A program made the position numbers and the translations under genes. This document shows, one piece after another, positions 1-48,515 of a stretch of 64,000 bases of DNA (its first letter is position 1; each line of letters opens with the position of its first letter). The notes beneath the pieces are model-generated. The model searched no databases. It saw nothing but the letters and a program-made list of their open reading frames with translations, and had not been told where the DNA came from. Location of the stretch: NCBI GenBank assembly GCA_965224085.1, contig CBDCYI010000005.1:800001-864000 (forward strand), given 5' to 3'. This stretch comes from Candidatus Marinacidobacterales bacterium (GTDB lineage Bacteria; Acidobacteriota; Vicinamibacteria; Marinacidobacterales; SMYC01).

Positions 1-41
1 CGATCGGGTCCGGATTCACGTGGAGATAGAAGAAAAACGCG

Positions 42-458
42 ATGACGGTCCTGCGTCGGTTCGTGGGCGCCCTTTTTGCCGCCGGAGTGCTGGGAATCGG
101 CATCGAGCTTTGCCTCCTCGGCCATACAGAAGATCGCTGGCAGCTCGTTCCGCTGGTGCTGCTCGGGCTCGGGCTACTCGCGCAGATTTGGCTCGTTTGG
201 CGCACAAGCGCCGCGAGCGTTCGCGCGTTCCGATCCCTGATGCTTTTATTCGTGCTCAGTGGTTTCGTGGGCCTCTACTTGCACTACAGCGCCAATGTCG
301 AGTTCGAGCTCGAGATGTATCCGTCGCTCAGAGGACTGAACCTGGTTCGGGAAGCTTTGACCGGCGCGCTGCCGGCGCTCGCTCCCGCGACCATGATGCA
401 TCTCGGGTTCTTGGGATTGGCGTCTACTTACCGATATCCGAAAGGAGTTACACCATGA
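42..458 (+). CDS. Hypothetical integral membrane protein (about 4 TM helices)
   Basis: 138 aa ORF with four hydrophobic stretches; its stop overlaps the next ATG (ATGA at 455-458). Confidence 0.7.
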   Translation: MTVLRRFVGALFAAGVLGIGIELCLLGHTEDRWQLVPLVLLGLGLLAQIWLVWRTSAASVRAFRSLMLLFVLSGFVGLYLHYSANVEFELEMYPSLRGLNLVREALTGALPALAPATMMHLGFLGLASTYRYPKGVTP

Positions 459-1099
459 AAATAAAAGCTTCGCTTGGGTTCGCCATAGCGCTACTCGTCG
501 CCTTTACCGCCGTGCATGGCGTCGCCCAGGTCGGTAAGAACGACGATGTGGTTAATCCGAACCTCGCCGGGAAAGACGAGCTCCTTCGCCTGGTACATCT
601 CGACGAGACCCTGGTCGAGTCGATCCTCGAGCGACGTCCGTCCATCGGCATGCTCGATCTCCACGGACTTCTGAAGCAAACCTTGAGCGAGGAAGCGCTC
701 GAGCAGCTCTACGCGCAACTATTCGTCCCGATCGATCTCAACACGGCGAGCCGTGAAGAGATCCTTCTCGTCCCCGGTGTCGGCCCCCGAATGGCCCACG
801 AGTTCGAAGAATACCGCCCCTATCAGGCCATGGCGCAATTCCGGCGAGAGATGGGCAAATATGTCGACGACGACGAGGTCGCGCGAATGGAGCAGTACGT
901 TTTCGTCCCCATCGATCTCAACGCGGCCAGCGAGGAAGACATTCTCACCATTCCGGGTGTCGGGCAACGCATGCTTCATGAGTTCATGGAGTACCGTCCC
1001 TACCGCAGCATCGCACAATTCCGGCGCGAGATCGGCAAGTATGTCGACGACGACGAGCTGAACCGCCTCGCGCGCTATGTGACGCTTCGAACCGAGTGA
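455..1099 (+). CDS. Secreted helix-hairpin-helix repeat protein (ComEA/PsbU-like HhH)
   Basis: RBS AAGGAG before ATG 455; signal peptide; two 60 aa repeats FVPIDLNxASxExILxxPGVGxRM spaced 180 nt apart. Confidence 0.75.
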   Translation: MKIKASLGFAIALLVAFTAVHGVAQVGKNDDVVNPNLAGKDELLRLVHLDETLVESILERRPSIGMLDLHGLLKQTLSEEALEQLYAQLFVPIDLNTASREEILLVPGVGPRMAHEFEEYRPYQAMAQFRREMGKYVDDDEVARMEQYVFVPIDLNAASEEDILTIPGVGQRMLHEFMEYRPYRSIAQFRREIGKYVDDDELNRLARYVTLRTE

Positions 1100-1273
1100 C
1101 GGACTGTCGAAGGCGCTTTGTTAGATAGGCCTCGCGCGCCACAGCCCGAGCGGTTCTTCTCTCCGTCGTCTCAGTGACATTCCGGCGACGCCCTGTACGC
1201 TTGCCGAAGCATCAGTGCAGCGAAAGCGTGTGTTGCGGGAAGAGTCGGTAGGAAATGTCTGTGTACAAGGCCT

Positions 1274-1346
1274 CATCCCGCGCCTCTGGCGCGAGGCCAG
1301 CATCCTCTCGCGCCTTTGGCGCGAGTCAGTCAGATCGTCTCGCGCC
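1274..1346. repeat. Two full and one partial tandem palindromic units (cgcgcc-tNt-ggcgcg) in the IS110 left end
   Basis: catcccgcgcctctggcgcgaggccag, then catcctctcgcgcctttggcgcgagtcag, then partial gatcgtctcgcgcc. Confidence 0.6.
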
Positions 1347-1511
1347 GGCAAGAAGAGGGTGAACCTGCTGTGCGACAATAGTGAGCCCCAGCCGCTACAA
1401 ACGACCGGGGCTCTGATGTTTGGATGGCCCCCGGAGGAGGCGCTCCACTACAAGTTGAAGCTAGCCTCTCACATCCGGGCGGCCATCGTCCAGCACTTTG
1501 CTGAGTTCCGA

Positions 1512-1925
1512 ATGGCCACCAAACCTGTCGTTCTTCTCCGGCTTTTCTGCCGCAACAAAAGCTGTGGGATGCCTTTCTTCATCTGCAAGTCATGTTACCA
1601 GGGACAGTGCTACTGCGGTCCAACCTGCCGTGACGAAACCCGGCGAGAGAACCAGCGCGAAAATAACCGAAATTACCAGAAAGGTTTCAACTCACGAAAA
1701 CTCCACGCGGCTCGGCAACAGAATTATCGTCTACGCCAGGCGGCGAAAATAGTGACGGAGCAAGGGTTCATTCACCCCAGTAATTCTGGCAGTCTAGGAG
1801 TTCGTGAAATTCAAGCTAGTGGCCCGATGGCTCATTCAATGAAAACGAAGATTGACAGTATCAGATATGCCAAATGCTGTATCTGCGGCCGACGCGGGAG
1901 GCTAAAGGATGTCGAAGCTGGGTAA
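1512..1925 (+). CDS. Cys-rich, basic, putative Zn-binding protein (IS accessory ORF)
   Basis: CRNKSC..CKSC..CYCGPTC followed by an Arg/Gln-rich helix and C-terminal CCIC; ATG 1512 is in frame with ORF 1215..1925. Confidence 0.65.
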   Translation: MATKPVVLLRLFCRNKSCGMPFFICKSCYQGQCYCGPTCRDETRRENQRENNRNYQKGFNSRKLHAARQQNYRLRQAAKIVTEQGFIHPSNSGSLGVREIQASGPMAHSMKTKIDSIRYAKCCICGRRGRLKDVEAG

Positions 1926-2325
1926 TGAACCGCTCACGAGCGATGCTCTGACAGAAAACAATTACGTCCGGACGATTTTGGACCTCTATCTTTCCATTCC
2001 GAACACACCTGAGCGGCCACGGCGCGACGACCGCTTCATCGCGACGCAGCTCTACCGCCAAGGAGTCCCGTTACACGAATTCGAGTGTGCCCTACTTCTG
2101 GGTTGCGCTCGTAGGGAGCTACAAGAACATGAGGAGCCACTGCAGCCCATTCGCTCCCTTCGTTATTTTTCACCTGTGCTCCAGGAAGTGCAAAGTCAAT
2201 ATCTAGACCCGCCTTATGTTCTTTACATTCGAGAAAAACTCTCGGACGTGCTTCGCCCGAAACTACCGAGAAAAAACCGAGCACGAACTCGTGGCATCGC
2301 GCGACAACTCCGATTGCCATGGTAG
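1909..2325 (+). CDS. Hypothetical protein (IS accessory ORF)
   Basis: 138 aa, overlaps the previous ORF; YVRTILDLY...IRSLRYF pattern resembles mobile-element-associated hypotheticals. Confidence 0.65.
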   Translation: MSKLGNEPLTSDALTENNYVRTILDLYLSIPNTPERPRRDDRFIATQLYRQGVPLHEFECALLLGCARRELQEHEEPLQPIRSLRYFSPVLQEVQSQYLDPPYVLYIREKLSDVLRPKLPRKNRARTRGIARQLRLPW

Positions 2326-2372
2326 AGCAAATATCACGATGAGCTTGGACTATTTTCGATTTCGTCAGCAGC

Positions 2373-2507
2373 TTGCCGGCAACGCCATACGTCGCCCTGC
2401 GCTCCTAGCGCCAGGAATGGACATGCGTGCCGGCAATTCTTTTGTGATGGACATCCAGTGGGGAGTTGCGCTTCGAGCGCCAGTACAGGGGCCGATGAAA
2501 CATCACA
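2373..2507 (+). ncRNA. Putative bridge RNA (target-binding loop 2373-2436, donor-binding loop 2443-2507)
   Basis: Two stem/internal-loop/hairpin units, each capped by gcgct-NNN-agcgc-ca; loop strands match the element junction sequences. Confidence 0.8.
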
Positions 2508-2532
2508 TGCGCTGGCGGAAATGAGTTCTTCC

Positions 2533-3789
2533 ATGAATCAACTCAAATACGACTTCTTCGTCGGTATCGACCTGGGTCAATGGCTTCACTTGGCCAGTGT
2601 GGTCGATGCCAAAGGTAACTTCTTGGCGGAGAGAGGCTTCCCCCATAGCCGCGAAGGACTATCGGGAACCATCGACTGGCTTTTGGAAGAGACCTCGCAA
2701 GATACCGAGCGCATCGCGGTGGCGATCGAAAAACCTCATGGGGCCGTCGTCGAGCTCTTTCTTGACCACGGCATCGCCATTTTCTCCATCAATCCCAAGC
2801 AGGTCGACCGTTTCCGCGACCGGCATTCTATGAGCGGCGCCAAGGATGATCGGCGAGACGCCTTCGTTCTCGCCGATTCGCTCAGAACCGACGGCCACCG
2901 CTTTCAGCGCTTGCATCTCCCACCTACGGAGATCCTCGCTATGCGCGGGTTGCTGAGTACCCGCGACCAACTCGTCAAAAACCATGTGGCCCTCAGCTCG
3001 CAGATCCGAGAACTCCTTACTCGTTGCTGGCCTCACCTCGTCTCGCTCGCGCCAAAGGACAAGGCTCTCGACGCTTTTTTCTGCGAGCTCCTAAAACTCT
3101 TCTTCGAATCCAGCCCCAACCCTCTTAGCCGCCACTCCATTGAGACCCTCGCTCAAAAACACCGCATCCGACGTCTAAAACCCGAGAAGATCCTCGATAC
3201 CCTCAAACAAAAACCTCTCCGGGTCGCAACCGCAACCACTCAAGCTACCGCCGAGCATCTCCAACTACTACTCCAGCAGTTGCTCCTCGTTCGACAACAT
3301 CGTCGTGCCTCCGACCAGCATCTCGAGAAGTGGTTCAAGCGCGTGCAAGCACTAACCGACGAGCATTGCTCCGACCCTGCCATTCTTGCCTCTTTGCCCG
3401 GCGTCGGTGCTTACGTGCTCGCCTCCGTGCTCTGCTATGCCCACGACCCCATTCGGCTCCGTAATCTCAACGCCTTCAGGACTCTCGGCGGCATTGCTCC
3501 TGTCACAAAAAAGAGCGGCAAGCGCGGTCAGTTGCGACCAACGATCCTGATGAGGAGAGCTCGCTCTTTGCCCCTCAATAATGCTCTCCACCATTGGGCA
3601 CGCACTGCCGTTTTGCACGACCCCCACTTCAAAGAACACTACGACCGGCTTCGTGACAGAGGCCACAGCCATGCCAGAGCTCTCAGAGGCGTCATGGACC
3701 GCATTCTCCCCATCGCCATTGCGATGCTTCGACAAGGAACCCTTTACGACCCCTCCCGGTGGCCCACAAAAAAAGCGAATCGCGGATGA
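2533..3789 (+). CDS. IS110-family recombinase/transposase
   Basis: RuvC-like DEDD motifs (VGIDLG, IEKP, KDDRRDAF); C-terminal LPGVG and GIAPVTKKSGK with the conserved Ser. ATG 2521 is an alternative start. Confidence 0.93.
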   Translation: MNQLKYDFFVGIDLGQWLHLASVVDAKGNFLAERGFPHSREGLSGTIDWLLEETSQDTERIAVAIEKPHGAVVELFLDHGIAIFSINPKQVDRFRDRHSMSGAKDDRRDAFVLADSLRTDGHRFQRLHLPPTEILAMRGLLSTRDQLVKNHVALSSQIRELLTRCWPHLVSLAPKDKALDAFFCELLKLFFESSPNPLSRHSIETLAQKHRIRRLKPEKILDTLKQKPLRVATATTQATAEHLQLLLQQLLLVRQHRRASDQHLEKWFKRVQALTDEHCSDPAILASLPGVGAYVLASVLCYAHDPIRLRNLNAFRTLGGIAPVTKKSGKRGQLRPTILMRRARSLPLNNALHHWARTAVLHDPHFKEHYDRLRDRGHSHARALRGVMDRILPIAIAMLRQGTLYDPSRWPTKKANRG

Positions 3790-3846
3790 CTATTACGAAG
3801 AACGTTTTCTCTTGATCCGGCGTGGGGAGTCCATTCCCCCTAAAGG

Positions 3847-4179
3847 CTAGATTCCGAGCCGTCGCTTGTCTGGAAGCCGGGCCTCTTTTGGAATGGACTT
3901 CATCCACTTGGAGACGCGGGCGACTATCCGGTCTTTGGTTCTCTCTTTTTCAAGCGGGTCTGGCGACTCGTGCAGGTGGATGTCGAGCGCGATCCTGCCT
4001 GCAGCCTCATCTGCGTAGACACTTCTCTCTCGGGACCATTTACCCTTTACTCTCCACAGCCTGTCTCCACCCATCCATCCCTTTTCCTCAACCCATCTTA
4101 GGCTGTGGATTCTCATGAGGCTCACTTCAATTTCTCGCTCAAACAGCTCCCATCGTTCGGGGTCGTAGCTCGTCTTCAA
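3847..4179 (-). CDS. Hypothetical protein
   Basis: 110 aa ORF with protein-like composition and a GGAG upstream; no motif recognised. Confidence 0.45.
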   Translation of the reverse strand: MKTSYDPERWELFEREIEVSLMRIHSLRWVEEKGWMGGDRLWRVKGKWSRERSVYADEAAGRIALDIHLHESPDPLEKERTKDRIVARVSKWMKSIPKEARLPDKRRLGI

Positions 4180-4385
4180 AACGCCTCCTCGGGAAAACGA
4201 CTGGAGGAGAGCTCACACGCTTGCGCCTTGATCCGCTCAATGCGCCTCGGTCAGCTTGGTCCAGGCTAATTGATTCTCTGACACAACCCTGCAATTTAGC
4301 ATATCTTGTGGTTCTGGCGTTTGGCAAAGAAGTCTTGACAAGAACGTCTTTTTGAGGCACCTACAGCCGTTCCTCTGAGGACCGG

Positions 4386-4668
4386 ATGCAAGGATTCTCA
4401 CTTTTCGAAGCCCAGGCCGGCACCGCCGCACGGCGTTTTCTCTATTCCTCTATCTTTTGGCTGCTGCTTCCGGGGGCCTTTGGCTTGGTTCTCGCGTCGC
4501 TTCTCTATGTGCCCGAGCTTCACGACCGGCTACCCATGGCGGTCAAGCCCTATCTGAGCTTCGGCCGGCTTCGGCCAACCCATGTGAATTTGACGGTTTT
4601 CGGATGGCTTTCGATGGTTTATTGCGGGGCCATCCTTTATATCTTGCCTCGGCTCACGCGGGCGCCGA
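4386..4668 (+). pseudogene. N-terminal fragment of a cbb3-type/heme-copper oxidase subunit I-like protein
   Basis: LSFGRLRPTHVNLTVFGWLSM..ILYILPRLT matches the CcoN N-terminus; similarity stops after about 94 aa and the frame runs antisense into the next gene. Confidence 0.65.
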
Positions 4669-4709
4669 GGAAAAGCGCAACAGAGAAGAGCCGTTCGGCG
4701 GGCGCACCG

Positions 4710-6746
4710 CTAGTTCGTGCCGGCTGGAGCGTAAATCGTAAGGCGCTCTCCAGCTACGATGCGGTCGGAGCTCATCTGATTCCACCGGCGGATCTCTTCG
4801 ACGGTGACGCTGAAGCGGCGAGCAATCGTCGAGAGCGTATCGCCACGCCGAATGCGATAGCGCGTCGTTGTCGATGCGGAAACTTCGGCTATTGCCGTCG
4901 CTTCACGGACACGAAGCTTCTGGCCGGAAACTATCCGCGTCTGGCGGCTCGAGAAACCGTTCAAGCGCCGCAGCACCGAAAGACCGAGGCCGTGTGCTTC
5001 GGCGATGTGCCCGAGTGTGTCTCCGGGCTGCACGATATAGATGTCGGTGTCGCTCGGCACCAGCGACGAGGACGATGCCGAGCGCGTGTTGCGCGCGGCT
5101 CGCTCGATGACGACGAGCCTTTGACCGGGATAGATGCGGCTTGAGCGCGGCCGCAATCCGTTCAACTCACGCAGCAGTCGAAGTGACATGTTGAACGAGG
5201 TCGAGATCTCACCGAGCGTATCGCCCCGTTGCACGAGGTAGACCTCCTGACCGTTCTCGGCCACCGCTTCTCGCCTCTGCACGGCACGGATGCGCTGGGC
5301 GCCCGCGCCCGGAGGCACGGGAACGGTGAGCACTTGTCCAGGATGAATGAGGGAGCGCCGGCTGATGTCGTTGGCGGCGGTGAGCGCATTCACGGTCGTA
5401 CCATAGCGGCTCGCGATCTGGGACAGCGTGTCGCCGCGGCGGACGACATGCGTCCCGAAACGCACCCGCTCCGCCTCCGGAATCTCTGCGAGCGCGGCGC
5501 GAAACACTTCGGTGGTTCCTTTGGGGACACGCAGGGCGTAATTTTCGCTGTCGAGAGGAGTCACCCAACGGCGGAGCTCGGGGTTCAGAAACTTCATGTC
5601 GTCGACGCTCACGCCCGCGGACTTGGCCGCAGTCGCGAGATCCACGGGATATTCGACACGCACGACGTCATATTCGAGCGGCGCAGTCGTGGGAGGCTCG
5701 AAGCCATACTCCTCGGGGTTTTTGGCGACCACGATCGCGGCGAGAATGAGCGGCACATAGCTCCGCGTTTCGCGCGGGAGCACGCGGCGTTTCGCGTGAA
5801 CCCAGAAATCACGGCTCCCGGTGCGCCGGATCGCGCGCTCTACACGCCTAGACCCGGAGTTATAGGCAGCCATCACGAGATACCAATCGCCAAACTGTTC
5901 GTAGAGGTCCTTCAGGTGGCGTGCCGCCGCGCGCGTCGCTTTTTCCGGATTGAAGCGATCGTCGACCCAAAAATCTTGCCGAAGGTCGTAACGCTGTCCG
6001 GTGCCGCGGATGAACTGCCAGATGCCTCGCGCACCTGCTCGCGACATCGCGCGAGATTTGAAAGCACTCTCGACCATCGCGAGGTAGAGCAGATCCTGGG
6101 GCATGTCTTCTTCGGCAAAGATCTCTTCGATCATCGAGCGGTAATAACCGGAGCGGTCGAGGGCCTCTTGGAACCAATCGTGGCGGCGAAGCTGGTACAT
6201 CTCGATGATGGAGCGCACCCGCGCATTCAGCACGATCGGGATGTCGTAGGTCGCGGTGGGCAGATCGGCCTCCGCCGCGGCACCGACGTCTTCGGGAAAC
6301 TCCTCGAGCGCATCGCTCGTCAGCTCGTCGACGGCCGCGAACTCGAATTGCTCCTGCGCATCCGCATCAAGAGCGCTGCGTTCCGTTTCCTGGACGGTCG
6401 CGATGATCTCGTCATAGAGTTGCGCCGACTCCGGGTAAGCGGCGATGCCACCGGGAGCATCCAAAAGCAGGTCGACCGCGCGATCGAGAGCGAGCCGCGC
6501 TTCGCTCCAATTACCGCGATGCGCGAGCTCCTCGCCTTTGTCGAGCTCGATGCGCGCTTGGCGCACGGCTGCGCGCTGGAGCGATGCTGTGACTTCCGCG
6601 GTCGGCGGCGGTTCGGGTCCAGATGCGGGCTTCTTAGACGAGCAGGAAGCGGCCACCAGGCCAAAAGAACAAATCCATATCCATCGCCAAATCCATGGGT
6701 GGGAAAGCTCCAGCACGCGCAAACCTCCAAGTAGTCTTGCTTTCAC
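4710..6746 (-). CDS. mltD: Membrane-bound lytic murein transglycosylase, MltD-like (SLT domain plus 4 LysM), lipoprotein
   Basis: Lipobox VAASC; VESAF, GIWQF, AAYNSG and ETRSYV motifs; four GDTL LysM repeats. Confidence 0.85.
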   Translation of the reverse strand: MKARLLGGLRVLELSHPWIWRWIWICSFGLVAASCSSKKPASGPEPPPTAEVTASLQRAAVRQARIELDKGEELAHRGNWSEARLALDRAVDLLLDAPGGIAAYPESAQLYDEIIATVQETERSALDADAQEQFEFAAVDELTSDALEEFPEDVGAAAEADLPTATYDIPIVLNARVRSIIEMYQLRRHDWFQEALDRSGYYRSMIEEIFAEEDMPQDLLYLAMVESAFKSRAMSRAGARGIWQFIRGTGQRYDLRQDFWVDDRFNPEKATRAAARHLKDLYEQFGDWYLVMAAYNSGSRRVERAIRRTGSRDFWVHAKRRVLPRETRSYVPLILAAIVVAKNPEEYGFEPPTTAPLEYDVVRVEYPVDLATAAKSAGVSVDDMKFLNPELRRWVTPLDSENYALRVPKGTTEVFRAALAEIPEAERVRFGTHVVRRGDTLSQIASRYGTTVNALTAANDISRRSLIHPGQVLTVPVPPGAGAQRIRAVQRREAVAENGQEVYLVQRGDTLGEISTSFNMSLRLLRELNGLRPRSSRIYPGQRLVVIERAARNTRSASSSSLVPSDTDIYIVQPGDTLGHIAEAHGLGLSVLRRLNGFSSRQTRIVSGQKLRVREATAIAEVSASTTTRYRIRRGDTLSTIARRFSVTVEEIRRWNQMSSDRIVAGERLTIYAPAGTN

Positions 6747-8482
6747 ACCCGCACGAAAATATTGTGATCGTTGCCGAGCTCACGTGCCGATGGCGTGATG
6801 ACCGTCGCGGGACTGACGGGCAGCTTTCGACCGTCGCTCACGGCGCCCCGTACATCGTCCTCCGAAACGAACTCGAGTGCAACCACTGCCGGGGCGGGCC
6901 CTTCGCTCGACGAAGCGGTCGTCGCCTGGGAAGCCTCAGCTTCGAATGAAGCATCGGAGCCACGGCTCCGAGGCGACGTCACGCCGCGGCTTTCGAGAAA
7001 CGAGGAGACGCGAGATTCGAGCGGGACCTGTCGCGCGCCCGTAGCGGTCGAGGGCACGGCCCGAGGCGGCGGCGCGGTGATCTCCCCCGTATAGCCGTAA
7101 GCCTCGAGCGCTTTGGCGACGTCGACACCGCGAATCTCATAGGCGAGCCGCTTCACGTTGATGAGGTGAAGCGGCGTGATGTTGTCGGAGGTGATGTTCC
7201 CTCCGTAAGAGCCGCAGCCGAGAGTCATCGCGGGCGCGAGCCCTGTGCTGAAGCCCACCGCGCCATGAGTGGCCGACGAGTTGGCCACTATCCGCGAGGC
7301 GGGCTTTTGAAGCGCAAACTCGCGGATGATGTCGTTGTTTTTCGAGTGGATGGAAAGGGTGTGTCCCATGCCTCCGTAGCGGAGCACTTGCTTCGCGCGC
7401 TCGCAGCCCTCTTTCCAGTCCTTGACCACGTAGAAGGCCAAGATGGGCGAGAGCTTCTCGATCGAGAGCGGATAGTCGCGGCCCACTCCGTTGAGCTCGA
7501 CCACCAGGGCGCGCGTGCCTTCGGGCACTGAGGAAGAGAAGCCGACCTTTTCCGCGATGAAGCCCGCGCTCTTCCCGACGATTTCCGGATTGGCGAGCCT
7601 CGACGGCAAGACAGCGACCTGCGCGAGCGTCGCCGCCTGCTCACTCGAGAGAAAGTAGCCGCCTTCGTGTTGCACTTGCTCCCGCACCTCGCGCTCGATG
7701 GCGCGATCGCAGATCAACGCTTGCTCAGAACAGCACAGGGTTCCGTTGTCGTAGCTCTTGCCCGTAATGATGTCGCGCACTGCTTTGGGAACGTCGGCCG
7801 AGGACTCGATATATGCAGGCACGTTTCCCGGACCGACGCCGAATGCGGGTTTTCCCGAGCTATAAGCGGCGCGAACGAGCCCCATCCCGCCCGTCGCCAG
7901 GATCACGGACGTGCGGCGATGGCTCATCAGCTCTTGCGTTGCTTGCAGCGAAACCTCGCTCAAACAGGCCACAATCCCTTCCGGCGCCCCCGCAGCAATG
8001 GCAGCACGCTCCATGACCTCGGTCGTCTTTAGAATGCAGTTCTTGGCCGCTGGATGCGGCGAGAGCACGACGCCGTTGCGTGATTTGAGACAGATGAGGA
8101 TTTTGTAGATGGCGGTCGAGGTCGGGTTGGTCGAGGGGATGACGGCCGCAACAACGCCCACCGGCTCCGCAATCTCGTACACTTTGCGTTCAGGGTTCTC
8201 GCGAATGATTCCGACCGTCTTCATGTCGCGGATGAACGCGTAGAGGTCTTCGGCAGCGAATTTGTTCTTGATGAATTTGTGCTCGACGACACCGTAGCCT
8301 GTCTCTTCGACCGCGAGCTTCGCGAGCTCGTACGACGCGTCGGAGGCCGCGACAGCACTTGCGGCGACGATGCGGTCGACCTCCTCCTGGCTCGAATGCG
8401 CGTAGCTCTCCCAAGCTTCGCGGGCGGCGAGCACCAAGTCGCGCGCTTGTTGTATCGACCGGAGGTCCTTGTCGCTAGCCAT
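6743..8482 (-). CDS. CoA-acylating aldehyde dehydrogenase (EutE/PduP/AdhE-N type), BMC-associated, with C-terminal extension
   Basis: [26 protein letters not shown] and EKLSP motifs; start MASDKDL at 8482. Confidence 0.9.
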
Positions 8483-31624: not shown

Positions 31625-32014
31625 GCAAGCGGTCAGGCGCGATACTCACCCGGCCGGTACGCGGTGAGAGCGGGAAACGACCAGCGAGCGATTCTCTCGT
31701 CAGTTCTATCAGCTCGGGGTCCTCGAGGAGCGTGTCGACGGGTTCGAGTAGATCATCCTTGATGAGCGACGCCTGTTTGGAGAAGTTGACGTAGAAGAGG
31801 GCGGACTGCCTGGTAACGGTCCCTATAACGCCTAATAAATATCATCCCTTAGGCTACAAGTCAAGAAAAAAACGACCAAATACAAAATAGTTGGGAAAAT
31901 TCTTGCGGATCGATCCAGGCGCGTTTGGCGCCGGCAAATCACAGATCTGTCAGCTGCCCGATTGGACGCGGATTGAAACCAACGGTGAAAGCGGTTACGT
32001 TTTGCAACAGGCTC
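31625..32014 (-). mobile_element. Truncated copy (390 bp, 5' end) of IS element A
   Basis: Appears identical by eye to 33654-34043. Confidence 0.9.
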
Positions 32015-32447: not shown

Positions 32448-33855
32448 TTTCGCTGTCCTTTCTTCGCCGCTTGACTCGAGCGATCGATATGAGGTTTTGG
32501 CTGATAACGCACCACCCGACGTAACGCTTGAATCCTCGGTCGCCCTTGTAGGTGGCGCGAAGCATAGCGAAGCGGTGCTTGAGGGTGCTGATGCGGGACT
32601 CGACGCCCCCGCGCCACTTGAGGGCTCGACGGAACCAGCGCTTTTTTTGAACCTTGGCTCGTTTTTTCGAGGGTCGTCCTCGAGCCGGCAACACCACTTT
32701 CTTTACACCGAGATCTATGGCCTTGCGTTCATTGTCTGCCGAAAAGAATCCGCGGTCAGCGGTCGCCATCTCCGGCGCACGAGCGAACTGTTTTTTGTGT
32801 TGCTCCAGCGCGGGCATCCACTGAGTTTGGTCCGCCGGATTGCCTGCGGCAACTTCGTAGTGGCTAACAATGCCGTTCTCCACCTCATCAATTCGCACGA
32901 GTCGTCCAAACTCGGTCGGCTTCCATGTTTTGCCTTTTCGGATCACGGCCGTATGCTCCTCGAACAGGCTGACGATCTTGTCCGGATGGTGACGATGGCC
33001 CCCTAAAACACGGGCCTTTGTCTGAGCTAACACCTTTTTGCACAGTGGCAGATAATGTTCGAGTTGGCTCTGATTGCTTATGATGCTCACCAGCGAACCC
33101 ACGACCGGAAGCTTTCCGCTCTTGAGCGACTGAATAACCTCGTCGGCTTGCCGGACCACGCTGCGCGCCGTGCCCATGAGCTTGCGATAACTTTGCTTGA
33201 ACTTGACTTGGCTCGATTCGGTGAACGACTTGCTGGCGCGGTCGATCTCAAGCTGCCTGTTTTTCGTTGATCGGCTGTGGTCCACCACCTTGAGCGCACC
33301 TTGAGCACAAGCCTTTGCAATACACTTCAGACTACGGGTGAGCACCCGGATGCCATCGGCAAGCAGTGAGCTATCTGTGGGGTAATGGATGTTGCTCTCC
33401 ACTACCGTCGTATCCGTGCGTAACTTGCGTCCCGTAGCCACCTTTTCGTCTCGAGCCTGAGCGACCACACGGGCATGGATTTTCTCTACGAACGCATCAC
33501 CGAGTAGGGAAAAGTTGCGACTGAATGTGGAGTAGTTGGGAATCGAATCGTCGTCGAAGCGAGTGAAGCGCCGATACACGAGGCTAGAACGGATCTCCCG
33601 CTCGAGGACTCGGAAGGACCATCCTTTGATGTGCTTGAGTACACAGCTGCGGAGCAAGCGGTCAGGCGCGATACTCACCCGGCCGGTACGCGGTGAGAGC
33701 GGGAAACGACCAGCGAGCGATTCTCTCGTCAGTTCTATCAGCTCGGGGTCCTCGAGGAGCGTGTCGACGGGTTCGAGTAGATCATCCTTGATGAGCGACG
33801 CCTGTTTGGAGAAGTTGACGTAGAAGAGGGCGGACTGCCTGGTAACGGTCCCTAT
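32440..33855 (-). CDS. DDE transposase of element A (start and end approximate)
   Basis: RTDTTVVESNIHYPTD, EFG, ADRGF and ESRISTLK motifs. Frame is open upstream of GTG 33678; as assembled it reads through to 32014. Confidence 0.8.
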
Positions 33856-34049
33856 AACGCCTAATAAATATCATCCCTTAGGCTACAAGTCAAGAAAAAA
33901 ACGACCAAATACAAAATAGTTGGGAAAATTCTTGCGGATCGATCCAGGCGCGTTTGGCGCCGGCAAATCACAGATCTGTCAGCTGCCCGATTGGACGCGG
34001 ATTGAAACCAACGGTGAAAGCGGTTACGTTTTGCAACAGGCTCTAGCTA

Positions 34050-35733
34050 GTTCCTGTCCAGAAACACCATAACTTGTGGTGTACGAGAGGCCTATCGAAG
34101 ATGTGGGTATTATACGTTTTCAGTCGGCACCTCGTAGGCTCGGAAGCGAATGAAAATCTTGGACGAAACGAGAGGCGAATCGTCAGCAATCCATGGCTAT
34201 AAACGCAGTAAGAGCAATCATTATTATCGTAATAGGTGCCTTGCCATTACCAACAGGTTGCAGGTGATGATGGAACTCCATACGTAGGATTTGAAAGAAG
34301 GCAATGAGCGCCATGTGCATCGGTCGAGACCAAAGACTCGTTTCAAGAACGAAATGACGCCTTCGATTCCGCAGCGAAATCGCCGTAGGCGTTGATAGAC
34401 CCAGGAACTCTTGACCATATCGGTCACCGCGAAGTGAGCCTTGGTAAAGGCAACATCTTCAACTCCCTTGCCTTTGATGGCTTCCAAGTTTGCCTTTGAA
34501 GAAAACGCGCCATCGTAGGCAACCTGGCGCGGGGCCCGTTCGTAGAGTTCGACTTGACGGTCGATCATGGTTTCCGCGAGAGTTGAATCGGACGGATTCC
34601 CATCCAAGATCACGCAATCCAAAATCATCGAGGACGAGCCACCAGTCAAACACACCTTGTGACCGTAGAGAGTCTCGCGCCGGTCTTTGCGAATAATGTC
34701 GGTGTGTTCTTCGAAGATCGAAACGACCTTTTCCTCCGCAGGCACACGCTCTTCATCAATCACTCTACGCCGAGTTTGGTTGATGACTTTTTCGGTGAGG
34801 ACGAGAAAGTGCTTAAAATCCGCGGCGATCTTCTCCGCACTCGCTCGCTTCACCGGCTCGGTCAAGCCGGACTCGTCCAACTGGTCTGCAACGCGTTGAG
34901 CGGAGCGATAGGTTTCTTCCGACACCTTCAGTAGATCTCGATAGACGCGACGCCTTTGTTCCTTATCCTTCGCGTTTAGAACTCCCAGTCGACGTCTCTT
35001 CGCTCGACGCGTTCGATTGCCGAAGACCACTACTGTACCCAGCAGTTCGCGAGTTCGGCACATGAGGCGAGTGAGAACTCGGACGCAGTCATAAAGAAGC
35101 TCGGAGTCCGTAGGAGAATGAATATTCGACTCCACTACCGTGCAGTCCACTCGTACTTTTCTTCCTTTTTCGATCGCGGTCTTCTCGGCAACACTCACCA
35201 ACTCTCGGTTGATTTTCTCCAGCGTTTCGAACTTCACGGCTTTGATGTTTGCTGCTAGGGTCGACTTCGACGGGCTCGGCTCTATGATGCCGAGCTGGCA
35301 AAACGTCCGATAGCTTCGAGAGTCTGCCAAGTGAAACGCCAGCTCCCGATAGGTGAACTGATTCAGCTGCTTGACCAACAACGCCCGGAGAACCTGCTCC
35401 GCGCTCATTCCCCCACGACCAACATCGCTCCCTGCCGATGGGGTGACCGACCTCAGGTCTTGCAGTACCAGCTCATTGAGCTTAGGATGGGCATCGAGCA
35501 GCGATGATATCGTTTCGAGCTCGCGTGCGTGCTCCAGCTCCAGCCAGGGCTCGCGAAGGCTTGGTTGTGGGTTGATCGTTTTTCGCATTTAGGGCTGGTC
35601 TCCTTTGGAGTTAAGTCGTTTAGAATCTGCGTTTTTGTCGACTCGATACTAAACGACACTCCCTCAGAAGGCTAGCCCTAAATTTGCGATTACCCCTTTT
35701 TTCTCAACCTCTTACACCTGTCAGGACGGGTAC
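34050..35733 (-). mobile_element. IS element B copy 1 (ISNCY-like), 1684 bp
   Basis: Ends GTACCCGTCCTGA and GTTCCTGTCCAGA; flanked by TAGCTA; near-identical to 46025-47708. Confidence 0.92.
34224..35588 (-). CDS. ISNCY-family DDE transposase
   Basis: RVDCTVVESNIHSPTD, YGHK, AYDGAF and FRCGIEGVISFLKR motifs. Confidence 0.9.
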   Translation of the reverse strand: MRKTINPQPSLREPWLELEHARELETISSLLDAHPKLNELVLQDLRSVTPSAGSDVGRGGMSAEQVLRALLVKQLNQFTYRELAFHLADSRSYRTFCQLGIIEPSPSKSTLAANIKAVKFETLEKINRELVSVAEKTAIEKGRKVRVDCTVVESNIHSPTDSELLYDCVRVLTRLMCRTRELLGTVVVFGNRTRRAKRRRLGVLNAKDKEQRRRVYRDLLKVSEETYRSAQRVADQLDESGLTEPVKRASAEKIAADFKHFLVLTEKVINQTRRRVIDEERVPAEEKVVSIFEEHTDIIRKDRRETLYGHKVCLTGGSSSMILDCVILDGNPSDSTLAETMIDRQVELYERAPRQVAYDGAFSSKANLEAIKGKGVEDVAFTKAHFAVTDMVKSSWVYQRLRRFRCGIEGVISFLKRVFGLDRCTWRSLPSFKSYVWSSIITCNLLVMARHLLR

Positions 35734-35746
35734 TAGCTAGTACCCG

Positions 35747-45083: not shown

Positions 45084-46024
45084 CTAGCCTGTTGTGCGGC
45101 AACTGGCCAGCGGCCGAGTACTCTGGACGTGAGAAAGAATCCAGATTTTGTGCTGAGGGCGACGTCCAGGACTCGATGATGATCGCGCAAAGGCGGATTG
45201 GTCGGTGGCCTTGAGTTTCGATGGTGTGCAGTGAAACGTCCGGCTGGGTGGTCAATCGCCGATCAGTTGGCGCTTATGCCGGTGCGAGTTTCGATATGAA
45301 CTTCGGCCTCCATCTGAGGCGATTCCATTGCTGGATATTGTAAGTGAGGGCGGTCCACAGAGATTCGGTGCGCACTTTGGTGATTCCGCGCACGCTAAAC
45401 TGCCGCAGGCCGAACTTGGTTTTGATCCAGAGGTTCGGAAACTCGGCCACCTGCGAGCGTGTCTTGTAGATTTCCTTGGCCTCGTCGGTCTGCATCTTGC
45501 ATCGGAACTCGACGATGTCGGGCAAAGGTTCACTCCGCTCGATCGAGCGGCCGTGCCGCGTACGAGGACAACATTGATCTTTGGCCGGACAGCTCTGACA
45601 GTCTTGCTTCGACACCTTGTATCGATAGCGCATCGAGCTATGGCTTTCGAGCTTAGCGTCGTAGCGTAGGTGCTTGCCCTGCGGGCACACATACGTGTTC
45701 GTCCCCTTATCGAAGACAAACTTCGACGCCTCGTATTCCTCACTCACTCCGTGGTGCTTATACGACTTACCCCGATTGAGCACTGCTGCCTTGTTGTCGG
45801 ATTGGGGGCCGATAAGCTCGATGTCACGCTTCGTCATCTCCGTAATGTTGTTGTTACTGATGTAGCCCCCATCCACGACCATCTGCTCGGGTGCACGCTG
45901 CATGCTCTGTTCAATCCGCTCTATCGCTGGTGTCAGCTGCCGATAATCGCTGCCCGCCTGCGTGGCTTCGATGTCGACAATCAAGCCATGCGCGGCATCC
46001 GTTGAGACCTGCACGTTGTAGCTA

Positions 46025-47708
46025 GTACCCGTCCTGACAGGTGTAAGAGGTTGAGAAAAAAGGGGTAATCGCAAATTTAGGGCTAGCCTTCTGAGGGAGT
46101 GTCGTTTAGTATCGAGTCGACAAAAACGCAGATTCTAAACGACTTAACTCCAAAGGAGACCAGCCCTAAATGCGAAAAACGATCAACCCACAACCAAGCC
46201 TTCGCGAGCCCTGGCTGGAGCTGGAGCACGCACGCGAGCTCGAAACGATATCATCGCTGCTCGATGCCCATCCTAAGCTCAATGAGCTGGTACTGCAAGA
46301 CCTGAGGTCGGTCACCCCATCGGCAGGGAGCGATGTTGGTCGTGGGGGAATGAGCGCGGAGCAGGTTCTCCGGGCGTTGTTGGTCAAGCAGCTGAATCAG
46401 TTCACCTATCGGGAGCTGGCGTTTCACTTGGCAGACTCTCGAAGCTATCGGACGTTTTGCCAGCTCGGCATCATAGAGCCGAGCCCGTCGAAGTCGACCC
46501 TAGCAGCAAACATCAAAGCCGTGAAGTTCGAAACGCTGGAGAAAATCAACCGAGAGTTGGTGAGTGTTGCCGAGAAGACCGCGATCGAAAAAGGAAGAAA
46601 AGTACGAGTGGACTGCACGGTAGTGGAGTCGAATATTCATTCTCCTACGGACTCCGAGCTTCTTTATGACTGCGTCCGAGTTCTCACTCGCCTCATGTGC
46701 CGAACTCGCGAACTGCTGGGTACAGTAGTGGTCTTCGGCAATCGAACGCGTCGAGCGAAGAGACGTCGACTGGGAGTTCTAAACGCGAAGGATAAGGAAC
46801 AAAGGCGTCGCGTCTATCGAGATCTACTGAAGGTGTCGGAAGAAACCTATCGCTCCGCTCAACGCGTTGCAGACCAGTTGGACGAGTCCGGCTTGACCGA
46901 GCCGGTGAAGCGAGCGAGTGCGGAGAAGATCGCCGCGGATTTTAAGCACTTTCTCGTCCTCACCGAAAAAGTCATCAACCAAACTCGGCGTAGAGTGATT
47001 GATGAAGAGCGTGTGCCTGCGGAGGAAAAGGTCGTTTCGATCTTCGAAGAACACACCGACATTATTCGCAAAGACCGGCGCGAGACTCTCTACGGTCACA
47101 AGGTGTGTTTGACTGGTGGCTCGTCCTCGATGATTTTGGATTGCGTGATCTTGGATGGGAATCCGTCCGATTCAACTCTCGCGGAAACCATGATCGACCG
47201 TCAAGTCGAACTCTACGAACGGGCCCCGCGCCAGGTTGCCTACGATGGCGCGTTTTCTTCAAAGGCAAACTTGGAAGCCATCAAAGGCAAGGGAGTTGAA
47301 GATGTTGCCTTTACCAAGGCTCACTTCGCGGTGACCGATATGGTCAAGAGTTCCTGGGTCTATCAACGCCTACGGCGATTTCGCTGCGGAATCGAAGGCG
47401 TCATTTCGTTCTTGAAACGAGTCTTTGGTCTCGACCGATGCACATGGCGCTCATTGCCTTCTTTCAAATCCTACGTATGGAGTTCCATCATCACCTGCAA
47501 CCTGTTGGTAATGGCAAGGCACCTATTACGATAATAATGATTACTCTTACTGCGTTTATAGCCATGGATTGCTGACGATTCGCCTCTCGTTTCGTCCAAG
47601 ATTTTCATTCGCTTCCGAGCCTACGAGGTGCCGACTGAAAACGTATAATACCCACATCTTCGATAGGCCTCTCGTACACCACAAGTTATGGTGTTTCTGG
47701 ACAGGAAC
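46025..47708 (+). mobile_element. IS element B copy 2, 1684 bp
   Basis: Flanked by TAGCTA at 46019-46024 and 47709-47714. Confidence 0.93.
46170..47534 (+). CDS. ISNCY-family DDE transposase
   Basis: Protein identical to that of 34224..35588 in the ORF track. Confidence 0.92.
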   Translation: MRKTINPQPSLREPWLELEHARELETISSLLDAHPKLNELVLQDLRSVTPSAGSDVGRGGMSAEQVLRALLVKQLNQFTYRELAFHLADSRSYRTFCQLGIIEPSPSKSTLAANIKAVKFETLEKINRELVSVAEKTAIEKGRKVRVDCTVVESNIHSPTDSELLYDCVRVLTRLMCRTRELLGTVVVFGNRTRRAKRRRLGVLNAKDKEQRRRVYRDLLKVSEETYRSAQRVADQLDESGLTEPVKRASAEKIAADFKHFLVLTEKVINQTRRRVIDEERVPAEEKVVSIFEEHTDIIRKDRRETLYGHKVCLTGGSSSMILDCVILDGNPSDSTLAETMIDRQVELYERAPRQVAYDGAFSSKANLEAIKGKGVEDVAFTKAHFAVTDMVKSSWVYQRLRRFRCGIEGVISFLKRVFGLDRCTWRSLPSFKSYVWSSIITCNLLVMARHLLR

Positions 47709-48515
47709 TAGCTAGGGGCCGAGCCGCCCTCGGCTTGCTTCATCACACGCGCGTCCGGATCGGTCGTGCTTGCGCGGTCGACCCGGCTTTTCGCCGCTTT
47801 CAGCTTGTCGTATTCCTTCAACGCTGATTCCAGATGCTCCTTTCTCTCTCGCGCGGCGCGTTGATGTGCAGCTTGTCCCTGGCGCGTTGAATCTTCCTCC
47901 GTCTGCTTTTCAAGAGCCTCGACTGCCTTACGCGCATGCTCCAGATATTCCTCGACTCGACCCTTCGTGCGGAAACTATTCCCCGATGCGTTCGCCCGAA
48001 TCCGCGTCCCATCCAGCATGACTCGCTCGAGCGTGATCAATCCGTCCGCACTCAAAAGACCCAACGTTTGTACAAACAATTCGTGCAGCGCCTCGGCATG
48101 GGTCACCCGAAAGTCCGATAGCGTATGGGCACTGATGCTCTGCATTCCCGTCAGCCATTGATACGCCGGGTGATGCTCGCACAGCCGCTCAATCGCGCGC
48201 GCCGAACTCACCGACTGACTGTAGCTGTAGACCCAAAGGCTCACCAGTAGATGCGGATCGAATGCAGGCCGCCCTGCACCACCCTCGACCGAGTGGACCT
48301 GCTCCGTATACCCGCTGAGGTCCAGCCGACCCACGAACTCCCAGATCGCTCGCGCTGCGTGATCCTCTGGAATCAACTGCTCAACGTCCACCGTCCGCAA
48401 CAGCAGCTGCGCCCGATCCACAACCTTCAACCGAGCTTGTGTCGCGCGCGCTCCTTCATCACCGTCATCGCCACGTTTTCGCGGACTCGGCATACCAGGT
48501 AGCGATGCTTGCTTC

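Follow-up and report, generated by a model that had tools for sequence, protein, structure and literature searches.

Positions 1191-3832 of the window (the whole 64,000-nt stretch of DNA that was analyzed) form a single mobile unit, which belongs to the IS110 group of the IS110 family and comprises three ORFs and a bridge RNA within 2642 bp (2.64 kb). From left to right, the element consists of a core dinucleotide CC, a leader, ORF A, ORF B, the bridge RNA, a DEDD recombinase, a 43-nt right end, and a second core CC (Table 1). The three-gene segment was recognized as the mobile unit because the donor guides of its bridge RNA match both ends and co-vary with them in relatives. Both ORF A and ORF B are located between the left terminus and the RNA and therefore move with the element. 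Compact IS110 elements possess a single gene and an RNA directly behind the left terminus within about 1.2-1.6 kb, and the element in the window differs in its length, its three ORFs, and an RNA located 1170 nt from the terminus. An initial annotation had proposed a multi-gene IS110 subtype with a ~310 nt leader, a Cys-rich basic ORF and an overlapping ORF of 138 aa, all inside the mobile unit and in front of a deeply buried bridge RNA and the recombinase. This layout was borne out by the guide co-variation, by identical copies of the element, and by an empty site in a relative; the leader measures 319 nt and the RNA starts about 1.17 kb from the left end.

Table 1 Features of the three-gene IS110 element (positions refer to the window).
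Feature	Position	Strand	Remarks
Left core dinucleotide CC	1191..1192	+	Flanks of 8 own-genome copies diverge directly before CC; junction of left target flank and element
Right-donor half-site CTGTAC (start of left end)	1193..1198	+	Reverse complement of 2483-2488; read by the 3' guide of the donor loop
Non-coding leader, 319 nt	1193..1511	+	Conserved palindromes/hairpins (1279-1293, 1307-1325, 1383-1413)
ORF A, 137 aa, Cys-rich basic protein	1512..1925	+	Predicted zinc ribbon and long basic helix
ORF B, 138 aa	1909..2325	+	Predicted five-helix bundle; overlaps ORF A by 17 nt
Bridge RNA, ~150 nt	2363..2510 (approx.)	+	Target-binding loop, then donor-binding loop; alignment of 18 distinct sequences
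Left target guide, consensus ..ACNTCNCC	2387..2396	+	Same sense as left flank and core
Right target guide GGAATGG	2414..2420	+	Reverse complement of core and ATTCC
Left donor guide GTGGGGAGT	2458..2466	+	Identical to 3822-3830, the last 9 nt of the right end, same sense
Right donor guide GTACAGGGG	2483..2491	+	Reverse complement of core and CTGTAC (1191-1198), one extra G
IS110-family DEDD/serine recombinase, 422 aa	2521..3789	+	Pfam and NCBIfam profiles
Outward-facing -35-like hexamer TTGATC	3812..3817	+	Ends 14 nt before core CC; putative promoter role
Left-donor half-site (terminus of right end) and right core CC	3822..3832	+	

The left boundary was placed where the own-genome copies cease to match, at 1190/1191, and the conserved part opens with CC followed by CTGTAC (1193-1198). 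On the right, the element closes with ...GTGGGGAGT and CC, the last position being 3832, and the core CC is present at both junctions (1191-1192 and 3831-3832). The boundary expected at 1194 in the initial annotation was real, although its position was 1-3 nt off. When the two termini were compared by inspection for terminal inverted repeats, they were not inverted copies of each other. The genome carrying the window contains 16 BLAST matches to the element, some of which are diverged or deleted derivatives. Three copies are 100% identical (window, L002, and L003), all at different places, and a further full-length copy at a separate place is 99.85% identical (L004). The ends of the identical and 99.85% copies are sharp (CC/CTGTAC and GGGGAGT/CC). 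In a genome of the same genus (G002) the element, and with it the ORF pair, is absent and the two flanks are only 25 bp apart; in G003 the gap between the flanks is 37 bp, as derived from coordinates alone.

The recombinase, with an N-terminal DEDD (RuvC-like) domain and a C-terminal Tnp domain, matched PF01548 at 2.9e-31 (residues 14-171) and PF02371 at 1.1e-11 (residues 288-374), and scored 162.8 bits against the NCBIfam profile NF033542 “IS110 family RNA-guided transposase” (cut-off 140). Its dN/dS ratios were 0.20-0.28. In the alignment of bridge RNAs, 98.8% of cells were paired in 33 pairs, 4 of them with compensatory changes. This degree of pairing was reached by none of 500 shuffles, and slid controls gave 22-44% paired. 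A single-sequence fold of 2322-2525 yielded z = -1.6, and 13 of 200 shuffles folded as well, i.e., its stability was not unusual. An Rfam search of positions 1-8000 (E ≤ 1) returned no family for the bridge RNA, the sole match being an unrelated miRNA model at 5262.

All four guides include or abut CC/GG. The right donor guide agreed with the left end in 21 of the 21 loci showing both (16 with CTGTAC/GTACAG and 5 with CTATAC/GTATAG). The distance from the left end to the RNA in these relatives ranged from 1165 to 1258 nt. Likewise, the left donor guide agreed with the right end in all 16 loci that showed both (15 with GTGGGGAGT, 1 with GTGGGAAGT), among them L043 with its G-to-A variant. The co-variation of guides and ends corresponds to about two evolutionary events among related sequences and not to 21 independent ones. 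The left target guide showed 1-2 mismatches per locus to the left-flank consensus, and the right target guide matches CC-AT-N-CC. As far as the available text of Durrant et al. 2024 (PMC11208160) describes it, the strand convention of the target-loop guides is that of IS621. Judged by these guide sequences, the bridge RNA follows the IS621 logic, with a target loop reading ..ACGTCG-CC / CC-ATTCC and a donor loop reading GTGGGGAGT-CC and CC-CTGTAC.

These matches also bear on a different delimitation of the element, according to which only the compact part (about 2320-3832) would be the true IS110 element. The segment with ORF A and ORF B would then represent a non-autonomous IS21 remnant in its own right, either nested or adjacent, whose place beside the element is accidental. 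Such an arrangement would agree with an own-genome copy (L010) that shares sequence only from window position ~2320 onward, and with the probable derivation of A, B, and the leader from IS21-type elements (see below). However, both the match and the co-variation of the donor guide involve the terminus at 1193-1198 and nothing near 2320, and the boundary at 1191 is common to the identical copies and to 21 metagenome or genome loci. Moreover, no IS21-type terminal repeat was detected on either side of the A/B segment, and the pair has no ends of its own here, which speaks to the question raised at the outset of whether it belongs to a separate insertion. L010 is recognizable as a rearranged copy, since the kinase genes on its two sides are different and oppositely oriented. 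A nested IS21 remnant is already largely refuted by the donor guide match at 1193-1198 and the common 1191 boundary, and we regard it as highly improbable.

The left-flank consensus is the antisense of the kinase codons G-E-V-Y and is matched by the left target guide, which varies between loci at codon third positions. As read from guides and flanks, the target of the element is the set of glycine-rich loop codons (G-x-G-G-M-G-E-V-Y) of Ser/Thr kinase genes. The window's own copy sits outside any kinase gene, and of the 8 own-genome copies scored, 4 to 5 lie outside clear kinase motifs. We found no report of kinase-loop targeting by IS110 in the open-access literature searched. The element exemplifies an RNA-guided element whose multi-copy landing site is a conserved motif shared by the proteins of a large paralogous gene family.

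ORF A contains 8 invariant Cys. Relative to the window, dN/dS was 0.28-0.58 for ORF A in 13 loci and 0.13-0.54 for ORF B in the 12 of the 13 loci with an intact ORF B, and both ORFs were intact in 12 of 13 loci. According to these ratios, both ORFs are conserved genes on which purifying selection acts. In one relative (L031), ORF A is mosaic, with 52% identity compared with 89% for B and 93% for the recombinase, and such mosaicism is a product of recombination. ORF A had no above-threshold family in Pfam, NCBIfam, PHROGs, or PADLOC (the sub-threshold matches were 0.054 in Pfam and 16.9 bits against a cut-off of 117 in NCBIfam), and no family was found for ORF B in the same four collections. 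The ORF B family itself comprises 1420 representatives at 50% identity (E ≤ 1e-3). Profile searches against the PDB retrieved nothing for ORF A and only designed repeat proteins for ORF B (E 0.086 or worse), neither protein had a PDB match with Foldseek at E ≤ 0.001, and in the ESM Atlas only unnamed clusters were matched. No paper on the A/B family was found in the open-access literature searched. The structure predictions had a mean pLDDT of 69.8 for ORF A and 78.3 for ORF B. A prediction of the A and B complex gave no answer (score 0.00, mark 0.32) and counts for neither side. With VIA-align, ORF B was matched to AAA+ lid domains (Z 5-7.2) and DnaD-like domains (Z 5.2), where values under about 13 for helical bundles may reflect a common arrangement; these matches are at best a lead.

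The survey of homologues and their neighbors that the initial annotation had suggested revealed a wider distribution of the pair. Among 63 loci with a relative of ORF B from other genomes or metagenomes (neighbor table, E ≤ 1e-5), 29 share the layout A-B(-IS110). IstA and/or IstB followed by B occurred in 27 loci, 12 of which contain the complete series A-IstA-IstB-B. The remaining loci comprised two with A-B-IS256, one with B beside a DDE_Tnp_1 transposase, one after an AAA_22 ATPase, and three in which no transposase was found. Pfam confirmed the neighbors as IstB_IS21 (3e-59) and Transposase_mut (9.1e-58). Beside IS256/Mutator transposases, A and B occur as one fused protein; 6 of 8 long family members inspected were such fusions, and a search for longer homologues retrieved one protein, also an A-B fusion. 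In three loci (L025, L028, and L029) the B domain is fused to a winged-helix HTH. In the IS21-type locus L030, A overlaps istA and B begins 4 nt after istB. A and B form a conserved uncharacterized pair common to IS110-, IS21-, and IS256-type elements, which is new here. The presence of this pair in unrelated mobile-element families points to a common helper function.

The pair was probably not an original part of the IS110 lineage. Gene callers extend ORF A upstream into the leader, although distant homologues start at ATG 1512 and homologues switch frame in this region, which identifies the leader as non-coding. The leader is homologous to the left non-coding regions of IS21-type elements (nhmmer, best E 2.2e-10; E ≤ 1.4e-3 in 8 of 11 type-1 targets), and a capture of the module by this IS110 lineage is probable because of this homology. 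An ancestor of the lineage likely acquired the leader-A...B cassette from an IS21-type element, and the cassette, placed between the terminal ~85 nt and the bridge RNA of the recipient, was retained from then on. Compact elements of 1.66-1.87 kb that lack A/B are the nearest IS110 relatives sampled (41-44% identity). The direction of transfer, from IS21 to IS110, was inferred solely from the IS21 form being more widespread and more deeply diverged. Homology to this element was detectable neither in the IS21-type left end over its terminal ~60 nt nor in the IS21-type right end, whose profile retrieved nothing better than E 1.6 from type-1 elements.

The position of the bridge RNA behind two genes raises the question of how the RNA is expressed. 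The outward-facing -35-like hexamer, for which relatives have TTGACA or TTGACC, was found in 16 of 16 loci with a visible right end. Its spacing from the junction suits a promoter, and the -10 of the proposed RE-LE junction promoter is weak (TGTACG or TATACG at the left end). A scan of 1100-3900 for one promoter type, internal sigma-70-like promoters, found 0 versus 0.9 expected. After excision, the RE-LE junction would join the right-end -35 to the weak left-end -10, and transcription would then proceed through the leader, A, B, the bridge RNA, and the recombinase. The bridge RNA would be cut out of this long transcript, or might also be made from an unrecognized internal start. We give an even chance to such a junction-promoter polycistron with an RNA that is processed out or internally started. 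Contigs from four metatranscriptome-labeled runs (one of them only guessed to be RNA) hold relatives, at least 90% alike, of parts of the leader, A, B, the RNA, and the recombinase, and some extend from the kinase flank into the element; such contigs show neither transcript starts, strand, nor level, and may stem from DNA carry-over. No contig joining 3832 to 1193, as expected of the circular double-stranded intermediate of IS110-group elements, was present in these four runs, although rare forms would escape notice in assembled contigs.

Two instances of the palindrome CGCGCC-N3-GGCGCG are present in the window, where 0.11 were expected, and the motif is also found in type-1 leaders and in the IS21-type locus L078. 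The zinc ribbon and basic helix of A could be the binding part of a regulator and B its helical partner domain, and this regulator might act on its own leader through the palindromes and gate expression. That A and B together form one such nucleic-acid-binding regulator is a guess, which we put forward tentatively. A regulator role would be independent of the transposition chemistry, which would account for the association of the pair with three transposase families that are unrelated to each other. In a broader version, which we consider doubtful, A and B would be two halves, split or fused, of a transposase-independent accessory factor that IS21, IS256, IS110, and possibly IS4-like elements each took up on their own. 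This factor would control a step common to all of them, such as gating of expression by the excised or junction form or contact to a host replication or nucleoid protein. In this lineage it would also have displaced the bridge RNA by 1.2 kb from the junction promoter, and the guide would have to be processed from a precursor resembling an mRNA.

Alternatively, A and B could be directly part of bridge recombination, for example as an aid in excision or directionality, in circle protection or segregation, or in opening a target within a transcribed gene. Their location inside the unit and their retention in all type-1 loci that show this region would fit, as would a faint likeness of the predicted B fold to AAA+ lid, DnaD-like, helicase-loader, and TnsC domains. 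In addition, the part of PMC13626964 that is available describes the excision of IS621 as inefficient and its control as an open question. Yet a chemistry-specific role is unlikely because the carriers IS21 (DDE and AAA+), IS256 (DDE), and IS110 (DEDD/serine, RNA-guided) share no common chemistry. Compact relatives also manage without A/B, and an own-genome derivative (L005) has a 174-nt deletion across the A/B junction and retains a 99% match to the recombinase, only from residue 39 on. A direct role in recombination thus appears improbable to us. A further possibility is that A and B ride along as passengers whose own function is unrelated to the carrier, such as a hitch-hiking selfish module, an anti-defense factor, or a host-modulating factor. 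Their association with at least three transposase families and the purifying selection, which shows that a function is kept, would be expected of passengers, and cargo in IS110 loci is documented (10.64898/2026.08.14.744561, in the text available). In contrast, the operon-like packing (in L030 and in the A/B overlap here) and the co-inherited leader look like an integration into the expression of the element, and A/B lack any match in PADLOC or PHROGs. We consider this explanation rather unlikely. Taken as a whole, a mobile three-gene unit with a captured module is in our view the probable explanation of the data, with the junction-driven transcript and the regulator as its less certain parts.

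Bridge recombinases are under development as two-component genome editors. In this natural lineage, two additional proteins have persisted while the recombinase diverged by at least 30%, which suggests a possible importance of auxiliary factors in the natural cycle, be it for expression control, excision, or interplay with the host, and this lineage offers a ready set of natural variants for testing such factors. The occurrence of one protein pair across three unrelated transposition chemistries is unusual and defines a sizeable unannotated protein family. The displaced bridge RNA also poses the concrete question of whether a functional guide matures from a long polycistronic transcript.

Among known systems, IS21-family elements with the order A-IstA-IstB-B (L030, L026, L068-L078, and others) resemble the element described here in that ORF A, ORF B, and the leader all have homologues in them. 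They differ in possessing IstA (rve, Mu-transpos_C_2), IstB (IstB_IS21), and TGT...-type terminal repeats, in lacking a bridge RNA and an IS110 recombinase, and in that A and B are separated by istAB. Conversely, the element in the window carries neither IstA nor IstB, and no IS21-type terminus was detected, which places it outside the IS21 family. We know of no name for the IS21-family elements with this gene order, and no paper on IS21 elements with these flanking ORFs was found in the open-access literature searched. By analogy only, IS66-type elements carry small accessory ORFs beside the transposase, which encode conserved proteins of unclear function.

IS621, as far as the available text of PMC11208160 describes it, resembles the element in its recombinase with DEDD and Tnp domains, in an RNA that lies in the left end upstream of the recombinase and presents the target loop before the donor loop, in a right-end -35 facing the junction, and in the absence of terminal inverted repeats. 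In contrast to IS621, the left end measures 1330 nt instead of about 200, two protein genes are located between the terminus and the RNA, and the RNA starts ~1170 nt from the junction, whereas the RNA of IS621 is located at the junction promoter. Furthermore, the core is CC here and CT in IS621, and the target is a coding motif of the kinase glycine-rich loop instead of a REP element.

The view taken at the outset that IS621-type elements are compact has become incomplete. Hu, Xie, Yang, and Rubin (bioRxiv, 10.64898/2026.08.14.744561) describe, in the part of their preprint that is available, cargo-bearing IS110 loci of up to ~100 kb and 2,999 elements larger than 2 kb. Their expanded loci carry mostly plasmid-derived adaptive cargo and have grown downstream of the recombinase module, with one-sided half-match boundaries and a mobility that falls with size. 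The element in the window shares with these loci a length above 2 kb, extra genes within the donor boundaries, and identical bodies relocated to different contexts. It differs in that a fixed, lineage-wide pair lies upstream of the RNA, that both donor half-sites match, and that this pair is a transposon-associated module and not adaptive cargo. Cargo in IS110 elements is thus already known from that source, and the element described here is a variant of this theme rather than a separate kind.

All left junctions of the element break at one point, before CC-CTGTACGC (window 1191), and all right junctions break after GTGGGGAGT-CC (window 3832), which is followed by AT-N-CC-N-CC. A search of the own genome with window positions 1000-4500 returned 16 matches. 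Upon re-alignment, three copies (the window copy, L002 and L003) were 100% identical across the element, and two more loci, L004 (99.85%) and L006 (85%), held full-length copies. In G002, a genome of the same genus, 25 bp separate the two flanking sequences of the window copy; in G003, a second genome used for flank comparison, the separation is 37 bp by coordinates. As neither genome carries the element or ORFs A and B between these flanks, both comparisons proposed in the initial annotation, namely a search for the ORF pair at the empty locus of relatives and for a separately inserted element containing it, favour the pair being part of the element.

Table. Coordinates of the IS110-family element and of its target-site flanks.
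Feature	Window position	Strand	Size or sequence	Basis or relationship
Target-site flanks	1170-1192, 3831-3842			also at own-genome copies L002, L003, L006 and at loci L012, L031-L055
ORF A	1215-1925 (longest open frame); conserved start ATG 1512	+		ORF listing; Cys-rich
ORF B	1909-2325	+	138 aa; 17-nt overlap with ORF A	ORF listing
ORF B-recombinase gap		+	195 nt	ORF listing
First loop, 5' guide	2387-2396	+	ATACGTCGCC	same sense as left flank plus core, consensus ACGTCG-CC
First loop, 3' guide	2414-2420	+	GGAATGG	reverse complement of right-flank CC-ATTCC
Second loop, 5' guide	2458-2466	+	GTGGGGAGT	identical to the final nine right-end bases, 3822-3830
Second loop, 3' guide	2483-2491	+	GTACAGGGG	reverse complement of CC-CTGTAC, 1191-1198
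IS110-family recombinase	2521-3789	+	422 aa	Pfam, NCBIfam

The interval between ORF B and the recombinase gene was strongly conserved across 18 distinct sequences from the own genome, one relative and metagenome contigs. Their alignment supports a two-loop structure of 33 pairs, with 98.8% of cells paired and four pairs changed on both sides. Across 500 column shuffles these values were never matched, and slid controls were 22-44% paired. Folded alone, the window sequence was not unusually stable (z = -1.6), and the region matched no Rfam model. The strand convention of the guides is exactly that described for IS621 by Durrant et al. (PMC11208160). At all 21 loci showing both features, the left terminus agreed with the donor loop (16 CTGTAC/GTACAG, five CTATAC/GTATAG), from which it lies 1165-1258 nt upstream. 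The right end agreed with the 5' donor guide at 16 of 16 visible loci, including the lone G-to-A variant (L043). These loci are related to each other and represent approximately two independent compensatory events rather than 21, but both events indicate a terminus at 1191 and neither a site near 2320. Because the donor guides co-vary with the terminus at 1191, the bridge RNA is located ~1.17 kb inside the element, and ORFs A and B belong to the mobile unit. The observation of a bridge RNA 1.2 kb inside the element, behind two accessory ORFs, is thereby confirmed, and the multi-gene architecture read from it is supported.

The remaining own-genome copies are altered or incomplete. L007 (86%) lacks the first ~290 nt; a 35-nt piece identical to the right-end terminus, but inverted, at its left breakpoint suggests that two copies recombined with each other. 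L005 is an internally deleted copy in which window 1840-2013, spanning the A/B junction, is gone, and its recombinase matches at 99% only from residue 39 on. In L009, which is otherwise 100% identical, window 2525-3552 and thus nearly the entire recombinase is lost while the leader, A, B, bridge RNA and both ends are kept, making it a possible non-autonomous form. L010 (91%), on another contig, is homologous only from window ~2320 (the last ORF B codons) onward. Upstream of it, a plus-strand Ser/Thr kinase is interrupted at the motif M-E-L-V-E-G-E-S, and its right flank is the N-terminus of a different kinase in opposite orientation. L010 looks like the product of a rearrangement rather than a compact element. 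All other matches were further fragments.

The recombinase matched DEDD_Tnp_IS110 (2.9e-31) and Transposase_20 (1.1e-11) in Pfam, and 'IS110 family RNA-guided transposase' in NCBIfam (162.8 bits; cut-off 140). ORFs A and B had no family match at library thresholds in Pfam, NCBIfam, PHROG or PADLOC. A word-indexed search recovered 14 homologues of ORF A and, from 97 candidates, 72 of ORF B at E ≤ 1e-3; an exhaustive profile search extended the ORF B family to 1420 representatives when clustered at 50% identity, of which 662 reached E ≤ 1e-10. When 13 loci were each compared with the window copy, dN/dS was 0.28-0.58 for ORF A and 0.20-0.28 for the recombinase, and 0.13-0.54 for ORF B in 12 of them; the locus left out, L012, has an in-frame stop in B and a frameshifted recombinase. 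Judged by their sequences, ORFs A and B are real genes. The N-terminal extension of ORF A from 1215 was ruled out as coding, since homologues shift frame there and distant ones start at the equivalent of 1512. Between L031 and the window copy, ORF A was 52% identical, B 89% and the recombinase 93%, and dS of A was also raised. The middle of ORF A (window 1560-1800) showed raised synonymous divergence from L006, L031 and L033, with identities of 52-57% for A, 83-89% for B and 89-94% for the recombinase. ORF A is therefore mosaic, a pattern which points to swapping of the A segment between lineages.

The neighbours of an ORF B relative were scored (E ≤ 1e-5) at 63 loci, two of which are duplicates (7 from related genomes, 8 from the genome collection, 48 from metagenomes). 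The order A-B-IS110 occurred at 22 loci; two contigs beginning within B showed B-IS110, and five showed A-B but ended before any recombinase could appear. Twelve loci had the IS21-type order A-IstA-IstB-B, one with an extra transposase behind, nine had IstA-IstB-B on contigs beginning inside, five had IstB-B, and one had IstA and IstB in a different order. Fused A-B preceded an IS256/Mutator transposase at two loci, whereas the B domain adjoined a DDE_Tnp_1/DUF4372 transposase at one (L025) and followed an AAA_22 ATPase at another (L064). No transposase was detected at the remaining three. Pfam upheld these labels in the examples tested: IstB (IstB_IS21, 3e-59 and 4.3e-53, and 2.5e-38 in L057), IstA (rve, Mu-transpos_C_2) and IS256/Mutator (Transposase_mut, 9.1e-58). 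The homologue search and neighbour table proposed in the initial annotation thus identify A/B as a module common to IS21- and IS256-type elements. In the open-access literature searched, we found neither the A/B family, nor IS21 elements with such flanking genes, nor kinase-loop targeting.

In the IS21-type element L030, packing is operon-like, with A (342-773) overlapping istA (from 707) and B beginning 4 nt past the end of istB. L015 encodes a single fused A-B protein, as does L014 (a locus of the unpublished genome G027, on which the claim does not depend), and six of eight long family members inspected are A-B fusions. In L025, L028 and L029, from Bryobacterales MAG records, the fusion partner ahead of B is instead a winged-helix HTH (assigned to HTH_36 or Crp-like HTH, at sub-cut-off scores). 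Going by these A-B and HTH-B fusions, B is regularly coupled to a predicted DNA-binding part, whether A or an HTH, and A would function with B as a single unit. The ORF-B-like domain may ride with still more element types, as in these three loci and L064. The AlphaFold model of ORF B is a five-helix bundle (mean pLDDT 78.3); that of ORF A (mean pLDDT 69.8) brings N- and C-terminal Cys clusters together in a zinc-ribbon-like sheet, with a 45-residue basic helix. Among candidate roles for A/B, a self-regulatory nucleic-acid-binding pair ranks first, as a guess of less than even probability. That the two proteins serve an autonomous passenger function appears rather unlikely, and that they take a direct part in recombination is distinctly improbable.

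The profile of the IS21-type left non-coding region matched the IS110-type leader (nhmmer) in 8 of 11 targets (E 2.2e-10 to 1.4e-3). The match begins ~60 nt in from the IS21 terminus, extends as far as the ORF A start and takes in a GC-rich hairpin before A. The window leader has two instances of the palindrome CGCGCC-N3-GGCGCG (0.11 expected by chance), which is also present in type-1 (A-B(-IS110)) leaders and in a single leader of IS21 type (L078); IS21 termini and an IS21 right end were not detectable in the window element. Outside the lineage, the most similar IS110 recombinases in a sample of 301 genomes from the phylum (41-44% identical) belong to compact elements of 1.66-1.87 kb without A or B. 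Given the leader homology, the palindromes and these compact relatives, the simplest explanation would be that the ancestor of this lineage of IS110 elements took up the leader-A...B cassette from an IS21-type element. The cassette would have been inserted between the ancestor's terminal ~85 nt and the bridge RNA, and would then have diverged together with the recombinase; where the recombinase drops from 94% to 72% identity, B drops from 89% to 56%. We infer the direction of transfer, IS21 to IS110, from the IS21 form being more deeply diverged and more widely spread among taxa. Genome-collection record titles for B relatives include Acidimicrobiia, Gemmatimonadota and Acidobacteria. At the bridge-RNA 5' edge of L041-L054 (aligned to window ~2363-2375), one subgroup reads TGTCAGCGAT, the first 10 nt of the L030 left terminal repeat in the same orientation, a match that could be coincidental or could be left over from the capture event.

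All 16 visible right ends carry an outward-facing TTGAC(A/C) or TTGATC ending 14 nt before the core CC. Circularisation would place this hexamer 17 nt from T(G/A)TAC(G/T), a weak -10 at the start of the left end. A simple scan found no sigma-70-like promoter inside 1100-3900 (0.9 expected). Transcription of leader, A, B, RNA and recombinase from a junction promoter, as suggested in the initial annotation, would fit these signals, which are not proof of it. Metatranscriptome contigs hold relatives of every element part, but starts, strand and level are not readable from them and DNA may be included.

Read antisense from the core, 23 of 30 recognisable left flanks encode G-x-V-Y/F followed by VAIK-type kinase sequence, and one matched Pkinase (3.3e-32, Pfam); two further flanks start G-E-V-Y on contigs too short for scoring. 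Right flanks are the antisense of G-x-G-G-M. From these flanks, the element family lands, always antisense, in the stretch of Ser/Thr kinase genes that encodes the Gly-rich ATP-binding loop (G-x-G-G-M-G-E-V-Y). Target guides vary mainly at positions matching codon third positions (ACNTCNCC, GGNATGG). Three of eight scored own-genome copies (L002, L003, L006) lie in clear kinase genes and the L005 flank has a kinase-like start; the window copy, L004, L008 and L009 occupy non-kinase sites with a partial match. The 25-bp orthologous intergenic spacer in G002 (L096) also lacks ~85 nt left (window ~1106-1190) and 8 nt right (3835-3842) of the element, so the window copy occupies a short non-kinase stretch that is absent from G002. 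We found no report, in the literature searched, of an IS110 landing site in a protein-coding motif of a paralogous family.

Elsewhere, the window contains a 1697-nt perfect inverted repeat (34043-35739 and 46019-47715, 10.3 kb apart) and a 300-nt perfect direct repeat (31625-31924 and 33654-33953, 2 kb apart), probably other mobile elements. Long repeats of 70-85% linking 23.4-25.9 kb, 35.7-41.6 kb and 49-53.3 kb suggest clusters of paralogous genes. Beside the element, an ORF at 4386-5144 resembles the cytochrome oxidase subunit I profile (2e-11) over no more than the profile's first ~77 positions before continuing into unrelated sequence, and may be a cox gene with a frameshift or truncation.

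The element should interest workers on bridge recombinases and IS biology. With IS110-group bridge elements it shares the recombinase domains, a two-loop RNA upstream of the gene, a core dinucleotide, the lack of inverted termini and guide/half-site complementarity in the IS621 convention, but it departs from their description as 'compact, single-gene'. Cargo-bearing IS110 loci were described in a preprint of August 2026 (10.64898/2026.08.14.744561), with emphasis on adaptive cargo of plasmid origin, expansion downstream of the recombinase, boundaries matched on one side and whole-unit mobility lost with size. In contrast to the loci as portrayed there, the extra genes here are a conserved transposon-associated pair between left terminus and RNA, both donor half-sites match, and identical whole units have moved.
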